A stretch of 64,000 nucleotides of DNA from assembly GCA_965116875.1 (NCBI GenBank), contig OZ220733.1:2976001-3040000 (forward strand). Direction: 5' to 3'. Every line of letters starts with the position of its first letter. Position 1 is the first letter of the stretch. Below, in pieces: positions 413-21,272 of the stretch. The notes under the pieces were generated by a model, which was given only the letters and a program-made list of their open reading frames with translations, did not search any database and was not told the DNA's origin. The stretch comes from Candidatus Latescibacterota bacterium. Its GTDB lineage: Bacteria; Latescibacterota; UBA2968; GCA-2709665. The position numbers and the translations under genes are program-made.

Positions 413-472
413 TATTGTGTTCTTTCTATCCACCGGCGAAGCCTCGGAAGACAAGGTCCCGTCGCCGCCCCT

Positions 473-1711
473 TTATCCAACTCTTCCCGTCACCGCCGCA
501 TCGATACACGTCTCCACAGGCCGGAATACCGGGTTGTATCCATATCCGGAAATGATATTCGCCAGTTTTGCCGAATTCGTCACGAGCGTGCGGTACTGAA
601 ACCGCTGTTGCAGGACGCGGGCGTTCATGATATAGAAACAAACACCCGTGAGGATTCTCCCTCCCGCACTTTCGACGATTTCCGTGTATCCCATCCGGTC
701 CGCCAGCGCTTTGATCTGATAATTGGTGGTGAGATACAGCTTCGAGCCGGAATGGACGCGCCGACCCCGCAGCAATTCCGCGATCGACTGAAGTTCGAAA
801 AGAGAAAGCTGTGGCGTGCCGCAGACCACGAGGTCGACCGCTTCCTTCTCCGGCTGGAAGGATTCGTACGCCGCCCGCAGCGTCCCCGGCGAAATCACGA
901 TCGTCTCGTCCGGTATTCGACCCCCGTACGCCTCTTCGGTCGTTCGGGCCTCGGGCGTCACCCCCACCATGTGGAACATCGCCAGCGATCCGTAACTGGC
1001 CAGCGCCGCGCCCAGGTGCTTCAGGTCGTCGATCGACGGCTTTACGTCAATCCCCTCAAATACCGGCACCCGCCAGTAGTCGTCCGCCCGCCGCCCCACC
1101 GCGCAGCCAAGCGCGCCCCAATCGCTGTTTGACCGCGGCTGGTCCTCGACCATCACGCGCACCGATCCCCGCCGCGTTTCGGGAAGGTGGAATCCGTAGC
1201 GCGGCACCCTGCCCGTAAGGCCCGCCCACACGGCCGCCGGTCCGGCCTCGAAGTTCGATCTGGCGCCGGCAACGGAGTTCGCGAAAATCACCGTGCCGGT
1301 ATCGCCCCAGCCCAGGTGTTCGCCGAATCGCGGCGGGTCCACCGTCTGATAATTGATGCAGGTGTTGCACGGCAATGCGCCCATCGCCGTGAGCGCATCC
1401 ACGATACGGCGTTCCCTGTTTACGGTATCCTCGTCCTGTCCTACGTCCCGCCACAGGGCGAAGTCCACGCTCCTCGGGTTGGTCGTTACCGGGACACGGA
1501 AACGTGCGCCCGCCGCAGCGGTTTCTTCCAGAAAGCGGAGGCCCGGCTCCGCCAGCGCTTCGATGTCCGCCATCACGTGCACCGTCCGTACGGGCACGAA
1601 GTCCTCGGCGCGAAAGAACCTCCCCACCTCCATCTGCCGGGCAAGCGCTTCGCCCGCTGCCGTCCCCATCTCTCCGGCCAGCATCGCCTTCTCTTCGCAC
1701 GTTAATCGCAT
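473..1711 (-). CDS. Aconitase X catalytic (large) subunit, DUF521 family (hydro-lyase)
   Basis: ORF 473..1855; start moved to MRLTCEEKAML (GGTGAG upstream). Motifs TTNP, NTCINY, ANSVAGARSNFE, LKHLGAALASYGSLAMFHMVGVTPEA, GTPQLS and TNSAK are typical of AcnX. Confidence 0.88.
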   Translation of the reverse strand: MRLTCEEKAMLAGEMGTAAGEALARQMEVGRFFRAEDFVPVRTVHVMADIEALAEPGLRFLEETAAAGARFRVPVTTNPRSVDFALWRDVGQDEDTVNRERRIVDALTAMGALPCNTCINYQTVDPPRFGEHLGWGDTGTVIFANSVAGARSNFEAGPAAVWAGLTGRVPRYGFHLPETRRGSVRVMVEDQPRSNSDWGALGCAVGRRADDYWRVPVFEGIDVKPSIDDLKHLGAALASYGSLAMFHMVGVTPEARTTEEAYGGRIPDETIVISPGTLRAAYESFQPEKEAVDLVVCGTPQLSLFELQSIAELLRGRRVHSGSKLYLTTNYQIKALADRMGYTEIVESAGGRILTGVCFYIMNARVLQQRFQYRTLVTNSAKLANIISGYGYNPVFRPVETCIDAAVTGRVG

Positions 1712-1869
1712 CAGTATCTCACCGAAGGCCAGGCTGTGGATTCCAGATGTTTGAAGTCTTCGTTGCCTCCAGCACGTAAAGAAACCCTTCAAGGCATGTA
1801 ATCTCTTCCCGCTACCGTGACTCCCCGCATTTTGACGACCTCTTCGGAGGTGCACCCCGGTGGTAACAT

Positions 1870-2658
1870 TTAACTCGACTCAGCTTCGTTCCGTACGTCC
1901 TGGAAAATCGTCTGTTTGATTTCGGCGACAATTTCGAAGAAATGGGGTTCGGCGGTCACGGACAGCGGCCGCGGGCGGGGCAAATCGATATCGTAGATTC
2001 TTGAGTTCCTGCCCGGTCGGGGCGTCATCACGTAGACCCGGTCGGAGAGGTACACGGCTTCGGGGATCTGGTGGGTGACAAAGACGATGGTCTTGCGGGA
2101 CTGTTCCCAGATGTTCAGGAGCATCAGGTTCATTTCGTCCCGCGTGAAGGCGTCCAGGGCGCCGAAGGGTTCGTCCATCAGCAGGACCTGCGGGTCGTAC
2201 GCCAGCGCCCGGACGATGGAAGCCCGTTGCTGCATACCGCCCGAGAGTTCGCCCGGATAGTGACGCTCAAAACCCTTCAGGGCCGTAATCTCGATCAGTT
2301 CGTCGATACGGTCCCGGTAGCGTTCCGGGTCTTCCCGCATGATCTCAAATGGAAACCGGATGTTCTGCAGCAGGTTCCGCCATGGCAGCATGTTGGAGGT
2401 CTGGAAGACCATGCCGATCTCCCTTCGCGGCTCCAGGACCTCTTTTCCGTTTACCGTTATTCTGCCCTCGGTGAGCGGCCAGAGCGCCGCCATGGCCCAG
2501 AGCAGGGTGCTCTTGCCGCAGCCGCTCGGGCCCACGATCGACACCAGTTCGCCTTCCGCCACCGAGAGATTGAAGCCGTCCAGCGCATGGACCTCCCCGC
2601 GGTCTCCGGTGAAGGTTTTCGATGCGTTTTCGACTGTGATGATGGGCTGGCTTTGCAT
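1870..2658 (-). CDS. ABC transporter ATP-binding protein, NitT/TauT family
   Basis: Walker A GPSGCGKST, signature LSGGMQQR, Walker B LLMDEPFGALD, H-loop FVTH, C-terminal PRPR motif. Confidence 0.93.
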   Translation of the reverse strand: MQSQPIITVENASKTFTGDRGEVHALDGFNLSVAEGELVSIVGPSGCGKSTLLWAMAALWPLTEGRITVNGKEVLEPRREIGMVFQTSNMLPWRNLLQNIRFPFEIMREDPERYRDRIDELIEITALKGFERHYPGELSGGMQQRASIVRALAYDPQVLLMDEPFGALDAFTRDEMNLMLLNIWEQSRKTIVFVTHQIPEAVYLSDRVYVMTPRPGRNSRIYDIDLPRPRPLSVTAEPHFFEIVAEIKQTIFQDVRNEAESS

Positions 2659-2827
2659 CTGCAGTACAAAAGGGAACGCCGCGATCGCGCGGTACGAGGG
2701 CGACTCGTTCAGGCCCAGCGAATTGGGCGTATCGCGGCGGGTTGGAATCGATTAAGACAGCTTCTAAGGGCGAACGGGAGTATATTCGATTTCGGGAGAT
2801 GGAACAAGGGATTTCTGGCGAGCAAAC

Positions 2828-3048
2828 CAGCGACAGGGAGGGCAACCACAAGGGTTGCCCCTACAAATACAAGGTTGCCACGCGGGTCGGCGATATCAAT
2901 TCACGAACGCATGATTGTGTAGGGGCGACCGGCCGGTCGCCCATTTGCAACCCACAAACCGGGCTCACACAAAGACACGAAGGCACAAAGGAAATCGGAA
3001 ACAGCGACAAGGCGGGCAACCACAAGGGTTGCCCCTACAAATACGAGG
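2828..3048. repeat. Cluster of three GTAG-type REP-like palindromes, including a 47-bp direct repeat
   Basis: Direct repeats at 2828-2874 and 3002-3048 (3 mismatches) each contain GGGCAACCACAAGGGTTGCCCCTACA (reverse complement TGTAGGGGCAACCCTTGTGGTTGCCC). Between them, in the opposite orientation, is TGTAGGGGCGACCGGCCGGTCGCCC at 2918-2942. Confidence 0.85.
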
Positions 3049-3140
3049 ATATCGCCCGGCGGGTGGGACCTGCCTGCCAACCATAACCTGGCGCAGGCAG
3101 ATGCCCTGGCACAAAAGCATCTGTATTTTAACCTTTTCGC

Positions 3141-3170
3141 TTGACAAGGTCTACCTCTTTGGCGTACTTT
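3141..3170 (+). promoter_or_regulatory. Putative sigma70 promoter for the small membrane protein
   Basis: TTGACA (3141-3146), 18-nt spacer, TACTTT (3165-3170); GGAGG RBS at 3184-3188. Confidence 0.45.
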
Positions 3171-3194
3171 TTTCATACAGATCGGAGGTACGCC

Positions 3195-3425
3195 TTGAAT
3201 GGGAAAATCTTCAACGAAGACAATATGCGACTGGTACTTTTGCTATTGGCCATCTGGGGTCTGATGTGGAACTTTTCCTCCGGAATCAATAAAAGAATAG
3301 ACAGATTGGAAGACAAGATGGAAACGAAATTCGATACGGTTGACCGGAAATTGGAAAGAATAGATGCACGCCTGGACTCCTTCGGGGAACGTATCGCCGC
3401 AAACGAAGCAAAACTCAAAGAGTAA
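3195..3425 (+). CDS. Small hypothetical protein with one TM helix and a coiled coil
   Basis: TTG start 6 nt after GGAGG; hydrophobic LVLLLLAIWGLMW followed by heptad-like IDRLEDKMETKFDTVDRKLERIDARLD; AT-richer than its flanks; followed by a terminator. Confidence 0.7.
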   Translation: MNGKIFNEDNMRLVLLLLAIWGLMWNFSSGINKRIDRLEDKMETKFDTVDRKLERIDARLDSFGERIAANEAKLKE

Positions 3426-3455
3426 AATTCCATTGCATCCATAACGTCGTCAACG

Positions 3456-3489
3456 GCCTGCCAGTAAGACAAACTGGCGGGCTTTTCTT
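3456..3489 (+). terminator. Intrinsic terminator
   Basis: GCCTGCCAGT-loop-ACTGGCGGGC stem followed by TTTTCTT. Confidence 0.65.
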
Positions 3490-3627
3490 GTCTCCCCTAC
3501 TTTCCCCGTAATCCTTGCCTCCATTCGTGCATTTTCTTAAAATTACATGCCCGTGGGTGTTGCGCGGGAGGCAACCCGACGCGTTGTTTTCGAAAGACGA
3601 CTGCCGTTTCTATCAACAGGTGAACCA

Positions 3628-4911
3628 ATGCAGACCGACTACGCGTTTGAGATGGGGACTTCGAATTTGCGGTTCGGACCGGGCGCGACGAGAGAAGTGG
3701 GGATGGACCTTTCCGAACTGGGCGCCAGGCGGGTGATGCTGCTGACGGACCCCAATCTCGTGGACCTGCCGCCGGTGCGGACGGCGGTCGAATCCCTCAG
3801 GAGCGAGGGGGTCGATTACGCGCTCTACGACCGCGTCCGGGTCGAGCCCACGGACGTTTCGTTTCAGGAGGCGATTGACTTCGCACATGATGGAGATTTC
3901 GACGCCTTTGTCGCCGTGGGCGGGGGCTCCTCGATCGATACGGCAAAGGCCGCGAATCTCTATTCCACCTATCCGGATGATTTCTACGCGTACGTGAACG
4001 CGCCGATCGGGAGCGGCAAACCGGTTCCCGGCGCGCTCAAGCCGCTGATCGCGATTCCAACGACCGCCGGAACCGGCAGCGAGACCACGGGCGTCACGAT
4101 ATTCGATATCTCCGCAAAACACGTCAAGACCGGTATCGCCCACCGCCGCCTGAAACCGTCGCTGGGCATTGTGGACCCCGAGAATACGCGCACCATGCCG
4201 CCGGTTGTGGCGGCCTCGACGGGGCTGGATGTGCTCTGCCACGCCCTCGAGTCCTATACCGCGATTCCGTACGATCAACGCCCGCTGCCCGAACGCCCGA
4301 TTCTCCGGCCGGCGTACCAGGGCACCAATCCGATCAGCGATATGTGGGCGCTCAGGGCCATCGAGCTGGTCGCGCAAAACATCGTGCGCGCGGTTGCGGA
4401 CCCGGACGACGACGAGGCCCGGTCGAACATGATCCTCGCGTCGAGCATGGCGGGGATGGGGTTCGGCAACGCGGGCGTTCATCTGCCCCACGGGATGTCC
4501 TATCCCGTCTCGGGGATGGTGCGGGATTACCGGCCCGAAGGGATGGTTAGCGACCATCCCATCGTACCCCATGGGATGTCGGTCTTCATGAACGCGCCGG
4601 CTTCCTTCCGGTTTACCGGACCTGCCTGCCCGGAACGCCATCTCAGGGCCGCGCAGTTGCTGGGCGCGGACATTTCCGGCGTGAAAGACCCTGAGGCGGA
4701 GGCGGGAGGCGTTCTCGCGGACCGCATCGTGGCGTTGATGAAGCGGCTGGAAATGCCCAACGGACTTTCGGCGATCGGGTTTGCGGAAGCGGACGTGCCC
4801 GCGCTGGTGGAGGGCACGCTGCCCCAGCACCGTGTGACCAAACTGTCACCGAAACCCGCCGGCAGAGAGGACCTGGAAGCGCTGTTCCGGGACGCGCTGA
4901 CTGCCTGGTAG
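3628..4911 (+). CDS. Hydroxyacid-oxoacid transhydrogenase (ADHFE1/HOT-like iron-containing alcohol dehydrogenase)
   Basis: N-terminus DYAFEMGTSNLRFGPGATREVGMDL, GGGSSIDTAK, PTTAGTGSETT, DVLCHALESYT, RPAYQGTNP, GVHLPHGMSYP and PHG are characteristic of HOT. Start moved to ATG 3628. Confidence 0.92.
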   Translation: MQTDYAFEMGTSNLRFGPGATREVGMDLSELGARRVMLLTDPNLVDLPPVRTAVESLRSEGVDYALYDRVRVEPTDVSFQEAIDFAHDGDFDAFVAVGGGSSIDTAKAANLYSTYPDDFYAYVNAPIGSGKPVPGALKPLIAIPTTAGTGSETTGVTIFDISAKHVKTGIAHRRLKPSLGIVDPENTRTMPPVVAASTGLDVLCHALESYTAIPYDQRPLPERPILRPAYQGTNPISDMWALRAIELVAQNIVRAVADPDDDEARSNMILASSMAGMGFGNAGVHLPHGMSYPVSGMVRDYRPEGMVSDHPIVPHGMSVFMNAPASFRFTGPACPERHLRAAQLLGADISGVKDPEAEAGGVLADRIVALMKRLEMPNGLSAIGFAEADVPALVEGTLPQHRVTKLSPKPAGREDLEALFRDALTAW

Positions 4912-4944
4912 AAGTACAGCGGACATCAGGAGGATGAGACTCGC

Positions 4945-6015
4945 ATGGCTTCGACAGGATCGTCAGAGCCACAGGTCAGTTCCGCCAGAGAACGCGGCGC
5001 TGCCGAAACTGATCATCTGCCCCCGTTCCCCGAGGGTTGGTATCTGGTAGACACGCGGCAGTCCCTTCTGCGGGAGAAATTGATCGAAAAGACCTGGATG
5101 GGAGAGGAAATCGTCGCCTGGTGCGATGAGGAGGGCCGTGTCTGCGTGGCCGACTCGATATGTCCGCACCTCGGCTCGTCCCTGGGACCGGACGTTGGCG
5201 GGAAGGTCTGCAACGGACGTCTGGTCTGTCCGTTTCACGGGTTTGAATACGATGCGACCGGCCAGTGCGTCGCGACACCGAACGCCCCGGCGCCCAGAGC
5301 GGCGAAGCTGAAGGTATACGAAACCAGGGAGATCCTCGGCCTTGTCTTCGCCTGGTTCGGGAACGGCGGCAGGCCGTCACACTGGGAACTTCCCGGCGAG
5401 CCGACCACCGGTCCCGAGTGGAGTCAATTGGGTTTCCGGCGTCTCCGCTTCCGCAGCCATCCCCAGGAAACGGCGGAGAACGCCGTGGACCTGGGACACC
5501 TGCGCTACGTGCACGGCTACGACAAGGTCAATCCGGTCGGCGCGCTAACAGTGGACGGCGCCTATCTGAAGAGTTGCTTCGACTTCAGACGCACCCGCAG
5601 TTTGCTGGGTCTGATCGATCTCGTGTATGAAATCTCCGCCGTCACCCACATCCATGGACTCGGCTACTCCTACGTTGAAATCCACGAGAAAACCATCGAT
5701 ATGCACGCGAGACTCTGGGTGCTTCCCACGCCTGTTGACGGCACCGTCATCGATCTCGTTCTGGCCGGCCAACTGATGGAATTCCGCAAGCCCGGGCGGT
5801 TCATCACGGGTCTCGGCTTCGTGCCGATGAAGCTGCGCCAACGGCTGATGAATCACATACTGCTTGGGCAGCAGAAACGGGATGTGCTGCAGGACGTGGT
5901 GATCTGGGAAAAGAAGCGGCACCGGTCGCCTCCCAGGCTGTGCCGCGCCGACGGCCCTATCGGCGCCTACCGCCGCTACTGCAGGCAGTTCTACCCGGAA
6001 AAGCATGTAACTTGA
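4945..6015 (+). CDS. Rieske non-heme iron oxygenase, KshA / Neverland-DAF-36-like sterol oxygenase family
   Basis: Rieske ligands CPHLG...CPFHG; mononuclear Fe motif ENAVDLGHLRYVH; C-terminal DVVIWEKK and DGPIGAYRRYCRQFY resemble the KshA/Neverland C-terminus; N-terminal FPEGWY; AGGAGG RBS. Confidence 0.85.
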   Translation: MASTGSSEPQVSSARERGAAETDHLPPFPEGWYLVDTRQSLLREKLIEKTWMGEEIVAWCDEEGRVCVADSICPHLGSSLGPDVGGKVCNGRLVCPFHGFEYDATGQCVATPNAPAPRAAKLKVYETREILGLVFAWFGNGGRPSHWELPGEPTTGPEWSQLGFRRLRFRSHPQETAENAVDLGHLRYVHGYDKVNPVGALTVDGAYLKSCFDFRRTRSLLGLIDLVYEISAVTHIHGLGYSYVEIHEKTIDMHARLWVLPTPVDGTVIDLVLAGQLMEFRKPGRFITGLGFVPMKLRQRLMNHILLGQQKRDVLQDVVIWEKKRHRSPPRLCRADGPIGAYRRYCRQFYPEKHVT

Positions 6016-6214
6016 TCGATGCGGCATCCCCCGGTAGCGGGTCGCCGGAGATCGGATCCTGGGGGAGGGGGCACAAACCTGCCTGCATCTGTCGACTGAG
6101 GAGCGATCCGTCGTTCCCCTACGCCGCCAGGGCTTCCGGTACCGTCTGCCGGACCAACTCCCCGGAGGGGTCCCGCGCCGGTAGTCCAGCCGCCTTCGGA
6201 AGTTCCGCGAAGGC

Positions 6215-6243
6215 TTGACAAGGCACCTGAAATGCTGTATCAT
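6215..6243 (+). promoter_or_regulatory. Putative sigma70 promoter for the P450-SDR-5alpha-reductase unit
   Basis: TTGACA (6215-6220), 17-nt spacer, TATCAT (6238-6243). Confidence 0.65.
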
Positions 6244-6465
6244 ATCGTAATATGAACAAGTTACCCACTTCCAAAGCGAGTTCGAGTCCTTCACCTTTAC
6301 TCTTGTTGATGGAGTTTAATAAATCCGCTTAATTGGGAACAAGCCGCAATTTCAAACTGAGACACCACCCAAATACCCGTGCCCTTGCAAGGGCACGCGC
6401 GAAATGTCAAAAATCGTGTTCAGAACGCTCGAAATCCTGCGAGGGAGAGGATAACTGGTTAACTG

Positions 6466-8499
6466 ATGACACGAGAAACAGCAGTTGGAACGGGCCCGGG
6501 GGCGTCCACGGTGAGTCTGCCTGAGGAGCTGCTGCTGGCGCTGCTGGACGAGGAGAGCGGTTATTTTCGTCAGGTGCCCGGCTGGAACCTGAACTGCGCC
6601 ATGACCGGCGCAGCGCTGGGTGAACTGTCGCTGCTCGGCCGTATCGACACCGATCTGGAGTCGCTGTCGCTGTTGGATGCGACCGATACGGGTCGTCCGC
6701 TGCTCGACCCGATCTTGCGGGAGATCGCCACCGAAACGGAACCACACGACGCCCGCTACTGGGTTGAAAGGCTTGCTCCACAGTCCGAGGAGATGATCCC
6801 CCAGGCGCTGGACGGGCTCGTTCGGCGACAGATTCTCGACCTCCACCCGGGCGATTTCTATACCTTCACCAAGCGCCAGCGGCAGGGCGAAACACCGCCG
6901 GAAGAAGAACACCTGGCGGGCGAGTCCGTAAAGGCCCGGCTGACCAGGATCATCTTCTCGGACGAGATTCCGGGGCCGCGTGACGTGATTATCACCGGCC
7001 TGGTCAACGCCTGCCGCGTGTTCCATCTGATGTTTCAGATCGACGAGGAAGTGGAAGAACGGATTCAGTTCGTCAGCCAGATGGACCTGATCGGCCAGGC
7101 GATTGCGGCGGCGGTGGGCCAGAGCATCGTCGCGCCCACGCTTCGGCATCCATCGCTGACCAAACCGATTCCAACCGTGTCCCTGCGTGATCTCGTGTTC
7201 AATCGAGAGCTGCGAGAGGGCAGGCTGCCGGCAGGGTTCGCCATTCTGGCCGAAAAGTACGGTCCGGTATTCGAGCTTCGGCTCCCGTTCCGCCAGAACA
7301 TGATTGTACTGGCAGGGTTGAAGACAAACGAATGGGCCCATCGCATGGGGCGGGTGTTCTTGCGGTCGAAGGAGTACTTCGAGGGCGTCGACAAAGCGTA
7401 TGGCGTGTCCCGCTCGATGCACTCGGTTGACGGTGCAGATCACTTTCGTTTTCGCAAATCGTTGCAGCCCGCCTACTCTCGCAGGACTTTGACCAGGCGT
7501 CTGGATGAGGTCTATGACCTGGCCCGCGCGCATATGGCGAGTTGGGAAGTCGACGAAACGTTCCCGGTTCAGGAGATGCTGCGGCCGTTGCTGAACGCGC
7601 AGTCATCGCCGCTCCTGGCCAGCATTGACACCCAGGGCGAGATCGTCGACGCGCTGGAATACAAGATACGGGTGCTCAATGTAGGCATCGTCAAGATTCT
7701 GCCGCGTTTCATGCTCTATACCCCGTCGATGCGCCGCCGGGCGAAGGCCATGCAAAAGATCATCGAACGCATGGAGAGGACGCATACGGCCGCGCAGCGG
7801 GCCGGGATGCATGAGGACGTGGTTGACGCGTATCTGGCCCTGAACGCGTCCGATCCCCAGTTCCTACCCGAATCGGACCTGACGCTGCCGCTGGGGGCGA
7901 TCCTGATGACCGCCATGTACATGGGCGATCAGGTTGGCTTCGCTCTTTACTGGTTGGTGCAGAATCCCGAATTGTACGAGCGCGTCACGGCTGAAGCGGA
8001 CGCGTTGTGGGCTGAGGGCGATCCCGGCGAGGAGGACTTCACTCGAGAACGGATCGACGTGACCCACCGGGTGCTGATGGAGACTTTGCGGATGTCGCCG
8101 ATCGTGGCCATGTCGATGCGGACGGTGATGAATACCAGCGTGGTGGAGGGATACGAGCTACCGGTCGGGTCGCAGCTCCTGATTGCGCAGACGGCCACGC
8201 ATTACTCGGAAGAGGCGTTTTCCGATCCGTGGACGTTCGACATTGACCGCTACCTGCCCCCGCGGAGCGAGCACCTGGGCAGAGGCTACGCGCCCTTCGG
8301 GCTCGGCACGCACTCATGTCTCGGGAGCCGCTGGGCCGAAATGCATATGGCGATCAACCTCCTGATGCTCACGCATCACTTCAAAATCGAACTGGCCCGC
8401 CCCTACAAGCGGTTGCCGATGGATCCGTTTCCCTCCCAGTCTCCCAGCAACAAACTTAAGTTCAGGCTCGCCGAGCAGCGGCACGAAATTCGTGTCTGA
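6466..8499 (+). CDS. Fusion protein: N-terminal GPP34/GOLPH3-like domain plus C-terminal cytochrome P450
   Basis: aa ~15-215 (SLPEELLLALLDEESG...GAALGELSLLGRID...TGRPLLD) match the bacterial GPP34 pattern. aa ~230-677 carry KYGPVF, ExxR (ETLR), FDIDRY and the heme motif PFGLGTHSCLG. Confidence 0.88.
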   Translation: MTRETAVGTGPGASTVSLPEELLLALLDEESGYFRQVPGWNLNCAMTGAALGELSLLGRIDTDLESLSLLDATDTGRPLLDPILREIATETEPHDARYWVERLAPQSEEMIPQALDGLVRRQILDLHPGDFYTFTKRQRQGETPPEEEHLAGESVKARLTRIIFSDEIPGPRDVIITGLVNACRVFHLMFQIDEEVEERIQFVSQMDLIGQAIAAAVGQSIVAPTLRHPSLTKPIPTVSLRDLVFNRELREGRLPAGFAILAEKYGPVFELRLPFRQNMIVLAGLKTNEWAHRMGRVFLRSKEYFEGVDKAYGVSRSMHSVDGADHFRFRKSLQPAYSRRTLTRRLDEVYDLARAHMASWEVDETFPVQEMLRPLLNAQSSPLLASIDTQGEIVDALEYKIRVLNVGIVKILPRFMLYTPSMRRRAKAMQKIIERMERTHTAAQRAGMHEDVVDAYLALNASDPQFLPESDLTLPLGAILMTAMYMGDQVGFALYWLVQNPELYERVTAEADALWAEGDPGEEDFTRERIDVTHRVLMETLRMSPIVAMSMRTVMNTSVVEGYELPVGSQLLIAQTATHYSEEAFSDPWTFDIDRYLPPRSEHLGRGYAPFGLGTHSCLGSRWAEMHMAINLLMLTHHFKIELARPYKRLPMDPFPSQSPSNKLKFRLAEQRHEIRV

Positions 8500-9583
8500 G
8501 TTCGCTGCGTCCGCTCTTCCGGCGCCCGATCTGGTCTACGACTCGCGAATTGAGCCTTTCACAATGAATTCATCTGGCGGCGGACGACCTCACACCGTAC
8601 GGGTGATCACGGGGGCGAGCGGGCAGATCGGTGGGGTGTTGGCGCGGGCTCTCGCCGACAAGTACGGGCCCCGTCAGGTTCGTGCGATCTTTCGGAAGCG
8701 TCGAGGGACGGCGGCGGATCTCGACGTCGCATGGGTCAAGGGCGACATTCTCAGCAAGCAATCGCTGATCGCCGCCTTCGCGGGCGCGGAGACTGTGTTC
8801 CATTTGGCCGCGTTGGTCTCGATCGGTACCGTCAGGGCACAGGAATTCCATCGCACGAATGTCCTGGGCACCCGCAACGTCGTGGAAGCGGCCCTCGAAT
8901 GTGGGGTGAGACGTCTGGTTCATGTCTCCTCGATCCACGCTTACGACCCGTTCCCGCTGGACGAAGTGCTTGACGAGAGTCGCCGCCCCGCGGACAGCCC
9001 GCGCGACGCGCCGTACGACCGTTCGAAAGCCGCCGGCGAAGCGGAGGTCCGGCGCGGTATCGACCGCGGTCTGGACGCCGTAATCCTGAATCCAACCAGC
9101 GTGATCGGCCCCTATGACGGCGCCCCGTCGCCTATGGGGCAGTTTTTTCTCGACCTCCACCGCAGGCGTCTTCCCGCACTGATCGCGTCTGGCTACGACT
9201 GGGTTGACGTGCGCGACGTCGTGGCGGCCACGATGGCCGCCGAGACACAGGCGAGACGTGGCGAGAACTACATCGTCTCAGGTCACTGGCACACCGTCCG
9301 CGAACTGGCGGAGCTGTCTCAGCAGGCGACCGGGGTAGCCGCACCTCGCCTCCAGTTCCCGATGTTCGCCGCCCGGTTATGGGCGCCCTGCCAGGTCGTC
9401 CTGGATCGGTGTCGCGGACGTCGTCCTCTCTACACGCCGGTGTCCGTCCGCGTCATGGCCCATGGCAATCGGCGGATATCAAGCGCCAGGGCGAAGGCGA
9501 AACTCGGGTTCCACCCGCGCCCGCTCGCCGAATCGGTCAGGGACACGTACCGCTGGTTCGACGAACACGGCATGCTGGATTAA
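8492..9583 (+). CDS. NAD-dependent epimerase/dehydratase family extended SDR (3beta-hydroxysteroid dehydrogenase / HpnA-like)
   Basis: ITGASGQIG Rossmann motif, VFHLAA, TNVLGTRNV, HVSS, catalytic YDRSK, VDVRDV. GTG start overlaps the P450 stop; the true start may be the later ATG (MNSSGG). Confidence 0.85.
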   Translation: MSEFAASALPAPDLVYDSRIEPFTMNSSGGGRPHTVRVITGASGQIGGVLARALADKYGPRQVRAIFRKRRGTAADLDVAWVKGDILSKQSLIAAFAGAETVFHLAALVSIGTVRAQEFHRTNVLGTRNVVEAALECGVRRLVHVSSIHAYDPFPLDEVLDESRRPADSPRDAPYDRSKAAGEAEVRRGIDRGLDAVILNPTSVIGPYDGAPSPMGQFFLDLHRRRLPALIASGYDWVDVRDVVAATMAAETQARRGENYIVSGHWHTVRELAELSQQATGVAAPRLQFPMFAARLWAPCQVVLDRCRGRRPLYTPVSVRVMAHGNRRISSARAKAKLGFHPRPLAESVRDTYRWFDEHGMLD

Positions 9584-9681
9584 CAGTCCGTTGGAAAAGT
9601 CGCTCTGCAGGCCTGCCGGTGAAGTCTTGGCAGGCAGGTAGCCCGGATGGACTTTTTCAACGGGCTGTAAAGGTGCGTGAG

Positions 9682-10443
9682 ATGATCGAAGAGCGTCTGC
9701 ACGGGATGCTGATATGGGCTGTCGTCGCGTTGGCGCCTGTGACGTTCCTGTACCTTCTCCGCAGGCCCGCGCCCTACGGGCGCCACTACGCGGGCGCGGG
9801 CTGGGGGCCCCACGTCTCCGCCAGGCTCGCATGGATCATCATGGAACTGCCGGCGCCCGCCGCCTTCCTCGTCGTCTATCTCAACGGCAAGGGCGCTTTC
9901 CAGATCGTGCCGCTGCTGTTCCTGGTCATGTGGCAGGGCCACTATCTGAATCGGACGTTCGTCTATCCGTTTCGTGTCCGGGCATGCGGTCGGAAGACGC
10001 CCCTTCTGCTGGTCGGATCCGGCTTTCTCTTCAATGCGATCAACGCGTACCTCAACGCCCGCTTCATCTCGGAATTCGGCGAGTACGGCACTGAATGGCT
10101 AGCCGACCCCCGCTTCCTGGTCGGCGTTGGGATATTCCTCGCCGGGCTCGCGCTCAATCTCCACGCCGACAACACGCTTATGCGCCTGCGTCAACCCGGC
10201 GAGACTGGCTATGCGATACCGCAGGGCGGCGGGTTCCGCTTCGTCTCGTGTCCGAACTACCTGGGGGAAATCCTCGAATGGGCGGGCTGGGCGGTGGCGA
10301 CCTGGTCGTCGTGCGGCTTTGCATTCATGCTGTTCGCATTCGCCAATCTCGCCCCGAGGGCGTGGAGCAACCACCGATGGTATCGAGAGACGTTCAGCGA
10401 TTATCCGGCACATCGCAGGGCCCTGATACCGGGCATCTGCTGA
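9682..10443 (+). CDS. 3-oxo-5-alpha-steroid 4-dehydrogenase (steroid 5alpha-reductase, SRD5A/DET2-like)
   Basis: APYGRH, AWIIMELPA, HYLNRT, NLHADNTL, YAIPQGGGFRFVSCPNYLGEILEW, NLAPRA..NHRWY..F..YP..R.ALIP are SRD5A family motifs; multi-TM protein. Start moved to MIEERLHG. Confidence 0.92.
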   Translation: MIEERLHGMLIWAVVALAPVTFLYLLRRPAPYGRHYAGAGWGPHVSARLAWIIMELPAPAAFLVVYLNGKGAFQIVPLLFLVMWQGHYLNRTFVYPFRVRACGRKTPLLLVGSGFLFNAINAYLNARFISEFGEYGTEWLADPRFLVGVGIFLAGLALNLHADNTLMRLRQPGETGYAIPQGGGFRFVSCPNYLGEILEWAGWAVATWSSCGFAFMLFAFANLAPRAWSNHRWYRETFSDYPAHRRALIPGIC

Positions 10444-10576
10444 CGCCTGAGCAATCCCGCGCGCCAGACGGCGCCCGTGATCCTCTGAATTGGCCAACGC
10501 GCCTTGAGTTGAAGCCGGCAGACGGCGGCGTTCGCTGAGAGCGATGTGCAGCGCGTCCGAATGGCGCCCGTTTACG

Positions 10577-13500
10577 TTACCGGACGGGAACCAGATGCAG
10601 ACGGATGGCGTAAAGCGCGGGGACGATCATCAGCAGGATTGACGTGGCGATGAGGATTCCGAAGCCCAGCGACGCGGCGAACGGGACGAGGAACTGGGCC
10701 TGAATGGCGCGTTCCAGGATGAGTGGAAAGAAGCCGAGGAAAGTCGTCAATGAAGTGAGCATAATCGGCCGAAATCGTCCCTTTGCGCCTTCGATGATCG
10801 CGGTTCGCACAGGGGTGCCTTCCTCGAGTTTCTGATCGATGAAATCGATCATCACCAGGGAATCGTTCACAACCACGCCGCTCAGACCGAAGACGCCCAT
10901 GAAGGAAACGGCGCTCAGTGCCAGCCCCAGGACCCAGTGGCCCAGGATCACGCCGATCAGACCGAACGGAATGACCGCCATGATGATGAACGGTTTGGTG
11001 TAGGACCGCAGCGGGATGGCAAGCAGCGCGAAAATCAGGAGCAGGGCAATCGCAAACCCGCGGAACAGCGCGTCGAGGGACTCGAGCTGCTGTTGCTGCT
11101 CCCCGCCAAAGGTGTACGCCAGGTCCGGGTACAGGGCGGTCAATTCCGCGAGGATCGAACTGGCGAGGATATTGTTGGCTTCGTCGCCGCTGATTACCGC
11201 CGCGTCCACGTCAGCCGTGACCGTGACCACCCGCTGTCCGTCTTTCCGCCGGATGGCAGGCGGCGACCTTCCTGAATTCATGGTGGCAACGCTGGTCACC
11301 GGCACCTCCGCTCCGCTCGGGGTACGGATCAGGTACCCTTCGATATCTGTAATGGAATTCCGCTCATCGCCGGGCAGTCGTACGTAGACCCGGACTTCTT
11401 CCCGTCCTCGCTGCACACGGACCGCTTCCTCTCCGAAAAACGCGGCGCGCGCCTGTCCGGCCAACCCCTCAAGCGTGAGACCGAGGGTCTGCGCTTCCGG
11501 CCGCAGCTGGAGCTGGACTTCCGGAACGCCCGGGGTGTGATCCGAACGTATATCGTGGACGCCTCCGATGCCGCGGAGCCCTTCGACCACGGCGTCTGCG
11601 ATCCCCAGGAGGCGCTCAGGATGCGGATGAGACAGCACGGCCTCCACGGGGTTGCCGAAGTCGATGACCTCGCCGCTGTAGGTGATACCGCGCACGTAGG
11701 GCAGCACCCCCACCTCCTCTCGCCACGCCTGCACGAAATCCACGGTGGAGATCTCTCGTTGCTGCGCGCCCAGGAGTTTGAATTCGATGGTGGCGATATT
11801 GGCTTCCGGATTCAGGGTTGGCGCGGGGTTCAGTCCGCCGCCCTGGACCCGCGGCCGCTGCCCGACGGTCACGATAACGCCGGAAAGCAGCGGCGGCGCA
11901 TCCGCGGCGCGGTCGCGAGAGAGGCGTTCGATGACCCGGTGTCCGGCGTCCTCCAGTTCCCGCGCCGCCTGGTACGTCCTGGGAGCGGTCGTACCGTCCG
12001 GCATCTCCAGAGTGACCGTGGCGAAGTCCCCTTCGACTTCGGCCGCCAGGGTCGTCGGGATGATGCCGGTTCTCACCAGAGAGAAACTCAGCACGAGCAT
12101 TCCCACCGCCCCCGCCATTGTCACCCAGGGCTGGTCGGCCGCGAACTGCAATGCCCGGTCCAGGGGGCCCTGCACGAACCGGTTCAGCAGCACATCCACC
12201 CGTCCCTGTACCCGTGCGAAGAACCGGTCGAAGGCATTTGCCGGCGCCCATTCCGGGCCGTGCATGTGCGACAGGTGGTTTGGCAGGATCAGCAGCGATT
12301 CGACCAGGGAAACCAGAAGGATGGAGATCATGATGATCGGCAGCGCCCGCCAGGACTCACCGATGCCGCCCGGGATGAACAGCAGCGGCACGAAGGCGAC
12401 CACCGTCGTGAGGACCGCGAATATCAGCGGCACCTTTATGCGCCGCGCGCCCCGGATCGCAGCCTGAACCCCGGGGGTTCCACGCTTGCGTTCGCTCTGG
12501 ATGAGTTCGGACACGACAATGGCGTCGTCAACGACGATTCCTATGGCGAGGACGAACGAGAACAGGCTTTGCGCGTTGATCGCAACGTCGAGTACCAGCA
12601 TCACCGCCAGGGCGCCGATACCCGAGACCGCAAGGCCGACGGCGACCCACATGGCAAGCCGGATCTGGAGAAACAGGCTGAGCGAGACCAGCACCAGCAG
12701 AAGGCCCAGTATGCCGTTCTTCAGGAGGATCTCGGTACGTTCCTTGAAGTCCTGTGACTCGTCGTTCCATATCGTGACGCCCACGCCGTCCGGCAGTGCC
12801 GGAATCACCTCGTCCGCCAGGTGCTCCCGCACGGCCGTGGCGACTTCCATCACGTGCTCGCCGTCGGCCCGGAAGACCTCCACGAATACAGCGGGATGGT
12901 TCTGATGCCGGACAATCAGGTCGGCTTCCTGAAAGCCGTCGCGGACTTCGGCGATATCGCCAACGCGCAGAACCGTGCCATCGCTGTTGCTGAGGAGGAT
13001 GATTTCCTCGAAGTCCTGCTGGTCGTAGTTCTGACCCAGAGTCCGGACCCTCACCTGAGATTCCCGTGTATCGATACTTCCTGCAGACAGGTCCAGAGAA
13101 CTGCGGCGAATCGTGTTGGCGACATCGTTGAGTGTCAGCCCCAGTGACCTGAGTCGATGAAGCGGCACCTCGATGGAAATCTCGTAATTCCTGACGCCGC
13201 TGACCTCCACCTGGGACACGGAGGAAAGCGTCTTGAGCTCGTCCTCGATCTGGTACGCCAATTCCTTCAGCGAGCGTTCCGGCACGTCGCCGTAGACAAT
13301 GAGCCGCATCATGCTCTGGCGATTGGTCATCTCCCAGAACAGGGGACGTTCGGCGCCGCCGGGGAAGGTCTGTATACGATTGACCGCAGACTCGATATCG
13401 TCCAGGGCCCGCGCCATGTCCGTCCCGGAATCCATCTGGATTCTCACGGACGCGATCCCCGGCGCCGCCACCGACTTGACCGCCTTCACGTCGTCCAGTC

Positions 13501-13750
13501 CGCTGACCCGGTCCTCGATCTTGACAACGATCGACTCCTCCACCTCCTCAGGCGTAGCCCCGGGATAGGCCATCGAGACTTCAATGTGATAGAAGGGGAC
13601 CGTAGGCCACGCTTCCCGCTCCAGGCCGGTCAGCGAAACCAGACCGAACGCGATAATTGCCCACATCAACAGATTGGCCGCAATGCCGTTGTCGGCCATG
13701 TAGGCGATCGGCCCGGGCCGTTCGCCGTGGCTGTGTCCGTTTGTGCTCAT
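10577..13750 (-). CDS. RND efflux transporter inner-membrane subunit (AcrB/CzcA superfamily)
   Basis: 1057 aa; YPGATPEEVE, GIVVDDAIVVSE, GVVVNDSLVMID, RFRPIMLTSLTT; two-repeat TM pattern. Confidence 0.95.
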   Translation of the reverse strand: MSTNGHSHGERPGPIAYMADNGIAANLLMWAIIAFGLVSLTGLEREAWPTVPFYHIEVSMAYPGATPEEVEESIVVKIEDRVSGLDDVKAVKSVAAPGIASVRIQMDSGTDMARALDDIESAVNRIQTFPGGAERPLFWEMTNRQSMMRLIVYGDVPERSLKELAYQIEDELKTLSSVSQVEVSGVRNYEISIEVPLHRLRSLGLTLNDVANTIRRSSLDLSAGSIDTRESQVRVRTLGQNYDQQDFEEIILLSNSDGTVLRVGDIAEVRDGFQEADLIVRHQNHPAVFVEVFRADGEHVMEVATAVREHLADEVIPALPDGVGVTIWNDESQDFKERTEILLKNGILGLLLVLVSLSLFLQIRLAMWVAVGLAVSGIGALAVMLVLDVAINAQSLFSFVLAIGIVVDDAIVVSELIQSERKRGTPGVQAAIRGARRIKVPLIFAVLTTVVAFVPLLFIPGGIGESWRALPIIMISILLVSLVESLLILPNHLSHMHGPEWAPANAFDRFFARVQGRVDVLLNRFVQGPLDRALQFAADQPWVTMAGAVGMLVLSFSLVRTGIIPTTLAAEVEGDFATVTLEMPDGTTAPRTYQAARELEDAGHRVIERLSRDRAADAPPLLSGVIVTVGQRPRVQGGGLNPAPTLNPEANIATIEFKLLGAQQREISTVDFVQAWREEVGVLPYVRGITYSGEVIDFGNPVEAVLSHPHPERLLGIADAVVEGLRGIGGVHDIRSDHTPGVPEVQLQLRPEAQTLGLTLEGLAGQARAAFFGEEAVRVQRGREEVRVYVRLPGDERNSITDIEGYLIRTPSGAEVPVTSVATMNSGRSPPAIRRKDGQRVVTVTADVDAAVISGDEANNILASSILAELTALYPDLAYTFGGEQQQQLESLDALFRGFAIALLLIFALLAIPLRSYTKPFIIMAVIPFGLIGVILGHWVLGLALSAVSFMGVFGLSGVVVNDSLVMIDFIDQKLEEGTPVRTAIIEGAKGRFRPIMLTSLTTFLGFFPLILERAIQAQFLVPFAASLGFGILIATSILLMIVPALYAIRLHLVPVR

Positions 13751-14958
13751 GGCGACTCGTCCGTCTCCGTCTGGACGGACATTCCCTCCGTGGCGAACTG
13801 GATCCCGCCGGTGATTACCGCCTGACCGTGTACCAGCGTACCTGTCACGTACACTTCATCGTTGGCGCGCTGCAATACCCGGACCGGAACGATGTTCACA
13901 ACGCCGCCTTTCACCATCCAGATCTCGTTTCCGGGTCTCAGTGATGCCCGCGGTACTTTGAAATAGCCCTCCAGCGCCAGGCCATCGATTTTCACCCGGA
14001 CGAATCCGCCTACCAATAACGGTGGATTGCCACCCGGACTGCCGATTCCATTCGACGCAACGCCCGCGGAAAACGGATCCGGAACGCGCACGATGACGTT
14101 GATGGTGCGTGATTGCTCGTCCAGGGCCGCCTCGGCCCGATCCACGAAACCTTCCCATTCATAATTCGCATCGCCGTACCGGGCAACCACCCGGGCGGCC
14201 GCGCCACGATTCCAGTCACCGGCCTTCAGACGCCACAGGTCCGGGATCAGGGCCGCGTCGCTTTCGGGCAGGGGTACGACCACTTCCACCGCATCGGAGG
14301 CGAAGAGCCGTCCCACCGGCTGGCCGGGATTGACGACCTGACCCACGTCCACGGTTTCCTCGCGCACACGGCCGTTGAAAGGCGCGGTTATCCTGGTTCT
14401 GGACAGGGCGAGCCTGGCGTCGGCAAGCCTGGCCTCGTCGCGACTCAGCGCGGCGGTTGCCGCGTTCAACTGGGGCTCTCTCAGCGTGAGAGGACTCGTA
14501 TCGGAAGGCGACGCCGGATTTCCCTTCTGTCCCGCATAAGACTCATACTGCGAGCGGGCAATCGACGCCTGTTCCTGTTCCCGGAGCAACGCCACCCGGC
14601 TGGCCGCGAGAATGGCCTCCGCTTCCTGCACCCTGAACCGATAGTGGACCTCTTCGATTCGGAACAGGCGCTGTCCGGCCGTCACCCGGCCCCCGCTCTT
14701 GAATCCCGGATCCACCCAGACCACCCGGCCGCCCACTTGAGGAACGATATCGACCTCCGCGCCGGGCCGAACGGTACCGGAACCGAATACCGGTATGGGC
14801 CCGGATCCGGCCGCAACCCGACCCGTCTGCACGAACGGTATCTGGGGAGGCTGTTCGATCCGCGTCGGTTCGGGCGACAGTAACCCCAGAAGGGCAGCCA
14901 GACCCACTGAAAACACGACAATGGCGACGGAAATCAGAATGCTGGATGTACGGGACAT
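13747..14958 (-). CDS. RND periplasmic adaptor (membrane fusion protein)
   Basis: N-terminal TM anchor, lipoyl-like halves (PQVGGRV; TRITAPFNGRV), coiled hairpin; 4-bp overlap with the RND gene. Confidence 0.93.
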   Translation of the reverse strand: MSRTSSILISVAIVVFSVGLAALLGLLSPEPTRIEQPPQIPFVQTGRVAAGSGPIPVFGSGTVRPGAEVDIVPQVGGRVVWVDPGFKSGGRVTAGQRLFRIEEVHYRFRVQEAEAILAASRVALLREQEQASIARSQYESYAGQKGNPASPSDTSPLTLREPQLNAATAALSRDEARLADARLALSRTRITAPFNGRVREETVDVGQVVNPGQPVGRLFASDAVEVVVPLPESDAALIPDLWRLKAGDWNRGAAARVVARYGDANYEWEGFVDRAEAALDEQSRTINVIVRVPDPFSAGVASNGIGSPGGNPPLLVGGFVRVKIDGLALEGYFKVPRASLRPGNEIWMVKGGVVNIVPVRVLQRANDEVYVTGTLVHGQAVITGGIQFATEGMSVQTETDESP

Positions 14959-14964
14959 GACGAT

Positions 14965-16494
14965 CTACTCCATCGGTGGTCGGGAGATGCTCCCCCCCGG
15001 CGGTTCCTGGCCGAAGGCCTGGCGGGCGTCGGGGGTCCACGCGCCGCCCAGCGCCCGGTGAAGGGCAAGCCGGGCAAGACCCAGATCGCGTTCCGCCGTC
15101 GAGAGTAAGGACAGCGCGGTCAACCGCATCTGCATTGCGGAAAGCAAAGCCTCATAGTCGACCACACCCGAAACGTACCGCTGTTCCTGCAGCAATTCCT
15201 CCGCTTGAGCCGCATTCGATCGAGCCGTCAGCAGCGAATGGCGCCGGCGGCTGGCCTCCAGCCCGGCAAGGGCGGCTTCAACCTCGTTGACGGCGGTGAT
15301 CACGGATCTCCCGTAGGCCGCGACGGCGCCTTTCAGTCCGGCTTTCGCAAGCGCAAGATTACCGCGAAGCCGGGTTCCCTGGAATACGGGTCCCAGCAGG
15401 TTCATGCTCAGATTCCGGAACCATTGCTCCGGGTTGAACCACTCGCTCGACTCCGTACTCTGCAGCCCGATGGATCCGTGAAGGGACAGTCTCGGCGCCA
15501 GGTCCGCGCGGCGGGCGCCAACCTGGAATCGGGCCGCTTCCATCCGCTGCCTCGCCGCGATAACGTCCGGACGCTGCATCAGCATACGGGTTGGAATACC
15601 CGGTGGAACGGGCTGAAGGTCGCCGTCGCCGGCCGGGGAATCGGACATCAACCGCGCGAGGTCCACACGGTGGTCTCCCATAAGCACCCGGAGCCGGCCC
15701 TCGGCATTGGCCAGCAGCGCTTCGATCTGCGGGAGTCCGGCCTGTGCGCCGCGCGCATCCTGCCGCGCCCTGAGGAGGACGCTCACGTCGGTCAGCCCGC
15801 GGTCGTAGCGGGACTCGGCCAGCGACTCTCGTTGTCCGGACACCTCCGCCATATCGGATGCCAGCGTCCGTTGCCGGCGCAGGTTGACGATTTCAAGGTA
15901 GGTCCGGACGGTTTCGGCCAGAACGCCCATCCTGGCCGTCATATAGTCCGCCTCGGATGCAAGGCGCTCGGCGCCCGCGGCCAGACCGTCGTTCCGGTTC
16001 CTGCCCCAGAAATCCAGTTCGTAGGCGAACTCCACACCGGCCGTGTAGGTCGTCAGCCCGAGTCGTTCCGGGAGCGTGATTCCCGGCACGCCGGCTGCTC
16101 CCGAACCGACTCCCAGTTCGTCCAGCTGGGCGCCGATTCCCGCGTTGGTGGGCGCGTCGAACTCGTTGACGCCGGCTGTTGGCTGAATGGATGGAAAAAG
16201 GGGCGCCCTGGCGATACGTGCCCGCGCTCTTGCCTGTTCGACGCGAGCGACCGCGGCGGCCAGGTCGAAGTTCGATGCCAGCACGCCCTCGATGATCCTG
16301 TTCAGGGCCGGGTCGGCGAACGTCTTCCACCATTCCCGCCGCTGGATGGAACCGGCGGACTCATTTCCGTCGGATTCGTCGTTCAGCGCCACGACCGATT
16401 CGGCGACCGGCGGCGCTGAACGCGGCGCCAGGGTGCAGCCGGAGACGAGAAAGCCGAGAAAAGCGGTTGTCAGTGGTTTCAGCGAATGAGACAT
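14965..16494 (-). CDS. RND outer-membrane factor lipoprotein (NodT/OprM family)
   Basis: Lipobox LVSGC, WWKTFADPALNRII, NFDLAAAVARV, YELDFWGR, RPDVIAA, ALGGAW. Start moved to MSHSLKP. Confidence 0.92.
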   Translation of the reverse strand: MSHSLKPLTTAFLGFLVSGCTLAPRSAPPVAESVVALNDESDGNESAGSIQRREWWKTFADPALNRIIEGVLASNFDLAAAVARVEQARARARIARAPLFPSIQPTAGVNEFDAPTNAGIGAQLDELGVGSGAAGVPGITLPERLGLTTYTAGVEFAYELDFWGRNRNDGLAAGAERLASEADYMTARMGVLAETVRTYLEIVNLRRQRTLASDMAEVSGQRESLAESRYDRGLTDVSVLLRARQDARGAQAGLPQIEALLANAEGRLRVLMGDHRVDLARLMSDSPAGDGDLQPVPPGIPTRMLMQRPDVIAARQRMEAARFQVGARRADLAPRLSLHGSIGLQSTESSEWFNPEQWFRNLSMNLLGPVFQGTRLRGNLALAKAGLKGAVAAYGRSVITAVNEVEAALAGLEASRRRHSLLTARSNAAQAEELLQEQRYVSGVVDYEALLSAMQMRLTALSLLSTAERDLGLARLALHRALGGAWTPDARQAFGQEPPGGSISRPPME

Positions 16495-21235: not shown

Positions 21236-21272
21236 GGATTGTCCCTTTCGCGCAAGCGGTATCAAATCCACT

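Follow-up and report, generated by a model that had tools for sequence, protein, structure and literature searches.

A putative sterol-tailoring operon headed by a GPP34-P450 fusion and shared across phyla of sponge-associated bacteria

The stretch of 64,000 nucleotides from a Candidatus Latescibacterota genome that is analysed here, and which is referred to as the window, holds at positions 6466-10443 what is probably a mobile three-gene sterol-tailoring operon of sponge-associated bacteria, whose substrates would be taken from the host or from neighbouring organisms. The three genes encode, in order, a fusion of a GPP34 domain to a cytochrome P450, an extended short-chain dehydrogenase/reductase (SDR) and a homologue of the SRD5A1/2-type steroid 5alpha-reductases. 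The genome of the window (G000) is a single contig of 5.45 Mb with an estimated completeness of 97.7%, and it is compared with a set of numbered genomes (G) and numbered loci (L), including 68 public loci that contain the fusion and that come from a scan of species-representative genomes. An initial annotation of the window had described a candidate steroid-tailoring cassette of four genes, with a Rieske oxygenase as the fourth member, acting on sterols that the organism does not make; the hormone-type label and the specific products (delta7 or oxy-sterols) that it suggested are conjectural. Pfam confirms that the plus strand does carry four genes of these families in the same orientation, and the synteny of the core, its linkage to sterol genes and the lack of a cyclase in G000 all favour the proposal; the Rieske gene, however, lies outside the unit. 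The sterol-tailoring reading is the best supported on sequence grounds and would give a new function to a published fusion within known bacterial sterol gene clusters, the chemistry of the cassette itself being putative.

The arrangement of the three genes recurs in distant lineages. The fusion of the 68 loci is 67-92% identical to that of the window and is found under the labels of at least seven phyla (Latescibacterota, Pseudomonadota, Gemmatimonadota, Acidobacteriota, Rhodothermota, Chloroflexota and Verrucomicrobiota), where all such taxon labels are the submitters' own. The record titles mention Latescibacterota, Alpha- and Gammaproteobacteria, Gemmatimonadota, Bryobacterales, Binatia, Rhodothermales, Opitutales and Dehalococcoidia, and 12 of them read 'chromosome'. 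When only loci with sufficient downstream room are counted (at least 1.2 kb for the SDR, giving 55 loci, and at least 2.3 kb for SRD5A, giving 49), the SDR gene is immediately downstream of the fusion, in the same orientation, in 40 of 55, and SRD5A comes next in 27 of 49, always with the SDR present too. Synteny across genomes, which had been suggested as a check on all four genes, holds for the P450-SDR-SRD5A core across phyla but only loosely for the Rieske gene. Within the 27 loci that have all three genes the pairwise identity ranges from 62 to 100%, with a median of 83% for each gene, and the GC content of the cassette is 0.59-0.64 against 0.48-0.70 in the flanks. The pairwise identities of the SDR and SRD5A are correlated (Spearman 0.72), and those of the P450 with the SDR and SRD5A less so (0.34 and 0.20), although these pairs do not count as independent data. 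In a quick maximum-likelihood tree of 51 fusions the branches are short, the labels of the phyla fall into one to four groups each, and the labels require 10 changes against a minimum of 6. The cassette is read here as horizontally mobile, with repeated horizontal transfer apparently followed by vertical descent.

The three loci closest to the window (L006, L007 and L012) illustrate how the arrangement can change. In all three the SRD5A gene is missing at the cassette position, a remnant of its first bases remains in L006 and L007 around 12130-12200, and each of the three genomes retains one Steroid_dh gene elsewhere, which in the two genomes with comparable contig coordinates is about 20 kb upstream. 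An intact copy, at L074:7679-8437, adjoins a gamma-glutamyltranspeptidase gene.

Why should sterols be the substrates? The first indication is the company that the cassette keeps in other genomes. On a closed Paracoccaceae chromosome the fusion, the SDR, SRD5A and a sterol methyltransferase (SMT) gene stand in order, and after the SMT there follow on the opposite strand a fused squalene epoxidase-oxidosqualene cyclase (OSC), a canonical P450 (CYP51), ERG24, SdmA (396.8 bits) and SdmB (302 bits). One Opitutales locus has SMT, ERG2, a fused squalene monooxygenase-OSC (SMO-OSC), CYP51, ERG24 and SdmA, all ahead of the fusion, such that the cassette ends a full sterol cluster. In L008 (11557-13262) and L027, both alphaproteobacterial, a gene for an ERG2/sigma-1-receptor-like protein (200 bits) separates the P450 gene from the SDR gene. 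The insert in these two loci also holds an open reading frame (ORF) of 296 residues that belongs to no family, and an MMPL transporter and a LolA-like protein are encoded upstream. Overall, 13 of the 68 loci have MMPL/HpnN-like transporters among the neighbours, 8 have LolA-like proteins and 7 have SMT.

This linkage would also fit if the cassette were part of de novo sterol synthesis, with the P450 as a CYP51 substitute, the Rieske protein and SDR as SdmA and SdmB, and the SRD5A enzyme as a ring reductase on an alternative route of C-14 or C-4 demethylation and reduction. Among solved structures the P450 domain has its best match in Methylococcus CYP51, the SDR aligns over its full length with the SdmB model and some genomes have the cassette directly next to sterol-synthesis clusters. 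At 89 bits and 23% identity, however, the match to CYP51 is weak, and a Foldseek search with the full model places CYP51 and P450 BM3 about equal as the nearest fold. Moreover, each of the five OSC-bearing carriers that were checked keeps another, canonical P450 (180-201 bits) beside the OSC, and the fusion was rejected as a CYP51 orthologue on these grounds. In G021, the one fully annotated cluster, this canonical P450 stands with ERG24 and with genuine SdmA and SdmB, which therefore coexist with the cassette. The genuine SdmA of G021 scores 396.8 bits and has VanA_C as its C-terminal domain, not KshA_C, whereas the Rieske protein of the window scores 34.8 bits over the Rieske domain only and falls outside SdmA. 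On the SdmB model the SDR reaches 200 bits, aligned to positions 4-327 of 328, against 302 bits for the genuine SdmB beside the OSC of G021; both are below the NCBIfam equivalog cut-off of 600 bits, which applies to SdmB (NF052578) as it does to SdmA (NF052579). As the OSC-bearing carriers checked keep their own P450, the cassette adds to the canonical demethylation enzymes and does not replace them; it is an extra tailoring module and not the canonical sterol pathway. De novo synthesis is an unlikely explanation for it, the more so because 28 of 50 carriers lack an OSC altogether.

This last figure comes from a survey of 50 fusion-bearing genomes in which a genuine OSC was recognised at E <= 1e-186. 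An OSC is present in 22 and an SMT in 41; the 28 carriers without OSC include closed chromosomes as well as G000, and 20 of them, closed chromosomes again among these, have an SMT, where the same SMT search was positive in none of 14 control genomes. Within G000 no OSC or squalene-hopene cyclase was found, the sole hit being a repeat protein of 273 residues that scores 25-28 bits and was rejected as a cyclase. A search for ERG4/ERG24 also found no match in G000, although the same search was positive in none of the control genomes. The genome has two P450s only, and neither is a CYP51. The second, at G000:C1:539846-541207 (L004:9846-11207), was considered as a CYP51 and rejected, being CYP4/CYP97/BM3(CYP102)-like with 298 bits on Pfam; it adjoins genes for a GH3-family adenylating enzyme, an enolase-superfamily protein and PhyH. 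G000 does have a complete orphan SMT (G000:C1:2841350-2842375, minus strand, equivalent to L077:9350-10375; Sterol_MT_C 79 bits), which is located about 135 kb upstream of the window and adjoins a PhyH dioxygenase and a heparinase-like protein. The earlier statement that the window is free of ring-cleavage and sterol-synthesis families also stands, as there is none among the 35 window ORFs scanned (sets of 11 and 24). Since G000 cannot cyclise oxidosqualene, its substrates would be sterols from the sponge host or from sterol-making neighbours, and its cassette probably acts on such sterols. Across the carriers as a whole, the simplest reading is that many of them edit sterols obtained from these same sources.

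A link with sponges is seen in published work and in metagenome runs. The GPP34 plus P450 form has been reported, in the portion of the paper available, only in sponge symbionts (Ferreira et al. 2025, PMC11706023). Among metagenome runs, one that is labelled 'sponge metagenome' contains 26% of the sampled words, with contig pieces that differ at 0-4 positions over 180-306 nt, and a 'coral reef metagenome' run contains 23%; both rank after the two best-matching runs, which may include the window's own source.

How, then, could the module work? It would be placed at the cytoplasmic membrane, where the SDR would first oxidise the 3beta-hydroxyl of the sterol with isomerisation of the delta5 to a delta4 bond, action at C-3 being suggested by analogy with its relative SdmB. 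The SRD5A enzyme would then reduce the 3-oxo-delta4 bond to give the 5alpha product, after which a stanol may be formed by back-reduction of the 3-ketone. The GPP34 domain may dock the P450 on the membrane, allowing the P450, together with the Rieske protein, to oxygenate or desaturate the ring or the side chain. Finally, an efflux system of the resistance-nodulation-division (RND) type or an MMPL system might export the product, in analogy to the sterol transporters of Methylococcus (PMC10942540, as far as its available text goes). A wider and distinctly more tentative proposal is that symbionts of many phyla may convert delta5-sterols of the host or community to 5alpha-stanols, 3-ketosteroids or oxygenated steroids, and then export them.

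The first enzyme of the operon, the fusion, is encoded on the plus strand at 6466-8499 as a single ORF of 677 residues, with matches to Pfam GPP34 over residues 18-218 (98.4 bits) and p450 over residues 258-658 (119.8 bits). One public gene call is for 662 residues and starts 15 residues later. The haem motif with its cysteine ligand (FGLGTHSCLG) and the EXXR motif are both present, and the I-helix reads MTAMYMGDQ, without the acid-alcohol pair. The AlphaFold model is of high quality by its own measures (pLDDT 89.1, pTM 0.84), and a sequence search with the GPP34 domain alone against solved structures gave no hits at E <= 0.01. Full-length relatives of the fusion span 24-92% identity, and one distant member of the family is named Candidatus Poriferisodalis. 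On a closed Dehalococcoidia chromosome (L065:8992-11017) the fusion reads as two ORFs, 8992-10035 and 10052-11017, through either a frameshift or a sequencing error. A P450 ORF of 689 residues in G012 was considered as a paralogous fusion and rejected, as it has no GPP34 domain and its neighbours are uninformative.

The window protein has the architecture of the form named GPP34_L, in which GPP34 and then P450 lie on one polypeptide; 656 of the 663 long GPP34 forms in the consulted text of Ferreira et al. (2025, Microbiome 13:4, PMC11706023) are of this kind, and they share with the present fusion the order of the two domains, the sponge habitat and an occurrence in many phyla. In that paper the protein is proposed to bind phosphatidylinositol 4-phosphate (PI4P) and control phagocytosis, whereas here it opens an operon with an SDR and a 5alpha-reductase. 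If it were mainly a host-interaction factor, with GPP34 binding PI4P on phagosomes and blocking their maturation, the neighbouring genes would be incidental. In favour of such a role, the GPP34 domain gives a full-length Pfam match. Set against this, the conserved operon that opens with the fusion also encodes a cytosolic SDR and a membrane reductase, the fusion adjoins sterol genes, and its N-terminus, when inspected by eye, has no hydrophobic stretch that resembles a signal. A P450 also requires haem and electron donors, which are supplied inside the cell. The words sterol and steroid are absent from the main text of PMC11706023, and its flanking-gene result, in the part available, concerns the short form. 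A primary role as a host factor is regarded as improbable.

The second gene, on the plus strand at 8564-9583, encodes an SDR of the SdmB/HpnA group, in which Epimerase scores 114.9 bits and 3Beta_HSD 75.8 bits, the latter covering profile positions 1-188 of 280 only. With a TGASGQIG cofactor motif, VSS and a YDRSK catalytic motif, it belongs to the extended SDR/3beta-HSD superfamily (PF01370, PF01073), and its best solved relative is a putative oxidoreductase, 3WJ7 (1.9e-40). It also aligns over the full length of the HpnA model with 207.2 bits, which is below the cut-off of 367.65 bits (TIGR03466), and as the genome has no squalene-hopene cyclase context it is not assigned to HpnA.

The third gene is located at 9682-10443 on the plus strand. 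Its product, from an integral membrane and NADPH-dependent family, scores 164.6 bits on Steroid_dh (PF02544; cut-off 22.6 bits) and has full-length similarity to solved SRD5A1/2-type enzymes, being matched to PbSRD5A (PDB 7C83) at 2.3e-81 with 276 bits over residues 12-252 and to human SRD5A2 (PDB 7BW1) at 1.3e-44 with 156 bits. PbSRD5A is a characterised progesterone 5alpha-reductase, studied outside its gene context, and in human SRD5A2 the residues E57 and Y91 hold the C-3 ketone of the steroid and Q56 completes a 'QEY' motif, according to the available part of Han et al. (2021, PMC7815742). The equivalents of E57 and Y91 are kept, with 'MELP' and 'GHY' aligning to 'QELP' and 'VHY', and both are found in 30 of 30 orthologues. 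Seven of the eight NADPH-site residues (N160, D164, R171, N193, E197, R227 and Y235) likewise have equivalents in the window reductase.

These assignments also bear on whether the cassette might tailor a lipid other than a sterol, such as a hopanoid, a polyprenol, another terpenoid or a polyketide lipid. That the SDR scores as high on HpnA as on SdmB would be consistent with this, as would the presence of polyprenol and enoyl reductases within the Steroid_dh family, a weak enoyl-CoA reductase match of the reductase and a large type I polyketide synthase (PKS) 20 kb away. Yet the reductase scores only 43 bits on enoyl reductase as against 276 and 156 on the SRD5A1/2 type and keeps the glutamate and tyrosine that bind the ketone, G000 is without a squalene-hopene cyclase, and the recurrent neighbours of the cassette are SMT, OSC and ERG2, not hopanoid or PKS genes. 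A non-sterol lipid substrate is accordingly given little probability, and sterol tailoring is kept as the preferred interpretation.

The Rieske non-haem-iron oxygenase of the window (4945-6015, plus strand; Pfam Rieske 60.8 bits, KshA_C 79.8 bits against a PF19298 cut-off of 23.3) is a looser companion. It has the CxH...CxxH cluster, the DxxHxxxxH iron motif and the KshA_C domain that characterise the KshA/Neverland type, its best solved relatives are KshA (80 bits, over residues 27-190 only), and it is the sole KshA_C gene in G000. Some clusters among its atlas neighbours are automatically named cholesterol 7-desaturase, which serves as a lead only. In 20 of the 68 loci a relative of 40-88% identity is encoded no more than 9 kb from the fusion, on either strand, and this variation in place and strand is what removes the Rieske gene from the single four-gene unit first described. 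On a Bryobacterales chromosome (L017:4616-7638) two KshA_C-type Rieske genes flank a partial copy of the P450 domain of the fusion, which is 337 residues long and about 77% identical and is followed by a methyltransferase fragment. In two gammaproteobacterial loci a DUF1295 protein, from a family related to steroid reductases, is encoded just upstream of the Rieske gene (L014:1959-2831, minus strand, and also L021).

The resemblance to KshA, along with the match of the SDR to the 3Beta_HSD Pfam family, raises the further prospect that the genes begin a route of steroid catabolism in which 3beta-HSD oxidation is followed by KshA-like 9alpha-hydroxylation. The established 9,10-seco route builds on the delta4 bond, however, and 5alpha-reduction removes it. 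G000 has only one KshA_C gene, and no ring-cleavage family is present among the 35 window ORFs, with no genome-wide kstD/hsa search having been made. Catabolism is a very improbable function for the genes, and tailoring of sterols again fits them better.

Downstream of the operon, on the minus strand at 10577-16635, is a tripartite RND efflux system made up of a permease (10577-13750; ACR_tran 546.6 bits), a membrane-fusion protein (13747-14958; HlyD_3 57.7 bits) and an outer-membrane factor (14965-16635; OEP 141.1 bits). In 17 of the 68 loci, labelled as four phyla, an RND permease of 67-92% identity is encoded at most 9 kb from the fusion, and in other loci (13 of 68) an MMPL/HpnN-like transporter takes its place.

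A number of observations weigh against the sterol-tailoring interpretation. Extended SDRs and P450s are promiscuous families, and most of the surveyed genomes are metagenome-assembled genomes (MAGs) of unknown completeness. In 15 of the 55 loci, with Dehalococcoidia, Rhodospirillales or Alphaproteobacteria labels, the fusion stands without SDR or SRD5A, and 8 of the 28 carriers that lack OSC are without SMT as well. The single interpretation of the fusion in print, PI4P binding and control of phagocytosis, is a different one; Ferreira et al. (2025) propose it for a form that, in the text available, they report only from sponge symbionts. The reductase does not have the full QEY motif: the position of Q56 is occupied by M in 30 of 30 orthologues and that of H231 by N in 29 of 30, and in human SRD5A2 the changes Q56A and Q56L abolished activity (PMC7815742, available text). 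Such consistent replacement marks a distinct 'MEY' clade, not a one-off change. In the P450, the AG-x-D/E-T sequence of the I-helix is kept by most of the wider fusion family but not by the clade of the window, and with the loss of the acid-alcohol pair the enzyme may not be an ordinary hydroxylase. Finally, no ferredoxin or reductase partner gene was found beside the cassette in the loci examined, and the small ORFs that precede the P450 gene in four loci show no conservation from one lineage to another, with none resembling a ferredoxin.

How does the operon relate to what has already been described? The combination had been thought undescribed, and this stands in part: the fusion itself has been in print since 2025 under the name GPP34_L, with no reference to sterols in the text available (PMC11706023). 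In full-text literature searches, with most subscription journals outside their coverage, no paper was found that links the GPP34-P450 fusion to sterols, nor any on '3-oxo-5-alpha-steroid 4-dehydrogenase' in sponge symbionts. Sponge-symbiont MAGs are known to hold steroid biosynthesis clusters (Kelly et al. 2022, PMC9531527) as well as clusters with SMT (Brown et al. 2023, PMC10070321), which, in the accessible portions of the two papers, are distributed over about ten phyla with evidence of horizontal transfer. In some genomes such clusters directly adjoin the cassette. These are de novo clusters with ERG24, CYP51, a fused SMO-OSC, SdmA, SdmB and SMT, and the genes listed for them in those portions include no GPP34-P450, SRD5A or KshA_C-type Rieske gene; the genome of the window, for its part, is without any such cluster. 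The C-4 demethylation system SdmA/SdmB, as cited in the part of PMC10070321 available, likewise pairs a Rieske protein with an extended SDR, and the SDR of the window aligns end to end with SdmB, but it belongs to another clade that is equally close to HpnA, and the Rieske protein has KshA_C in place of VanA_C.

Functional parallels can be drawn with better-known steroid pathways. In gut Bacteroidota, clusters that combine a 5alpha-reductase with a 3beta-hydroxysteroid dehydrogenase make iso-allo bile acids, and in plants DET2 and CYP90 enzymes carry out steps of brassinosteroid synthesis. In both systems a C-3 dehydrogenase or oxidase acts alongside a reductase of the SRD5A family to take delta4/delta5 steroids to 5alpha products, as the cassette would, although they operate in other hosts, on other substrates and with other enzyme clades. 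No GPP34-P450, Rieske oxygenase or RND pump is known from either of them.

Sponge sterols and fossil steranes serve as animal biomarkers, and the contribution of symbionts to them is debated (PMC10070321, PMC9531527, in the text available). The occurrence of a tailoring cassette, often with an orphan SMT, in bacteria that lack a cyclase suggests that symbionts may edit sterols that they do not themselves synthesise, and such editing would alter the attribution of sponge sterol profiles. Part of the unusual sterol and stanol inventory credited to sponges, and hence of the sterane biomarkers, would then be made or finished by bacteria that are not sterol makers. The sponge-specific GPP34-P450 would likewise be a membrane-docked sterol enzyme and not, or not only, a PI4P decoy, and its odd I-helix may mean chemistry beyond plain hydroxylation. 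One of the clearest marker proteins of sponge symbionts, the role of which has so far been guessed, would in this way gain a testable metabolic function, and the bacterial SRD5A enzymes, until now structural stand-ins for a human drug target, would acquire a natural gene context.

The layout of the operon differs in some details from the initial annotation. The reported overlap of the P450 and SDR genes exists only in the longest ORF of the latter (8492-9583, from a GTG). Nearly all of 42 aligned orthologues share the start M(K/T)SSGGGRP, which corresponds to ATG 8564 in the window, and the SDR gene therefore begins 64 nt after the P450 gene stops at 8499. Similarly, the reductase starts at ATG 9682, giving 253 residues, and not at 9379 as in the longest ORF (9379-10443), the PbSRD5A match beginning at residue 12 of the shorter form. 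The single promoter suggested for the last three genes has a candidate in a site upstream of the P450 on the plus strand that is a strong match to the sigma-70 consensus (6215-6243, TTGACA-17-TATCAT, 11 of 12 consensus positions), but the number of such sites in the region is at chance level (3 found against 2.0 +/- 1.3 in shuffles, no excess). The stretch 6196-6297 around it is about 85% conserved, and only in L006, L007 and L012. No Rfam family matched window positions 1-17000 at the gathering threshold.

The grouping of the Rieske gene with the gene first called 'HOT', in preference to the P450, is borne out, as it lies 33 nt downstream of this gene (3547-4911, plus strand). The latter encodes an iron-containing alcohol dehydrogenase (Fe-ADH, 149.8 bits) with every NCBIfam equivalog score far under the cut-off; it is a neighbour outside the mobile core and stands beside the cassette in L006, L007 and L012 alone, which are the closest loci.

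The spacer that separates the SDR gene from SRD5A holds a dispersed repeat of about 85 nt with inverted ends (9584-9668), which looks like a MITE- or REP-like element (miniature inverted-repeat transposable or repetitive extragenic palindromic). It gives 191 BLAST hits genome-wide, about 20 of which are near full length at 86-97% identity, and it is missing from the corresponding spot in L006 and L007. The depth of the contig at 9545-9728 is about 10-fold or more over that of most other bins in all four metagenome runs.

Further from the operon, the type I PKS is encoded on the plus strand at 30101-40366 as a protein of 3421 residues with KS, AT, DH, methyltransferase, ER, KR and ACP domains and a further KS and AT, and presumably resembles the PKS that makes methyl-branched fatty acids in sponge symbionts. 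Genes for heparinase II/III and polysaccharide lyases are also found near the cassette in this genome and in related ones (18908-21298 of the window, minus strand; L017:17763-20030 and L077:6481-9312), which would fit with feeding on host glycosaminoglycans.

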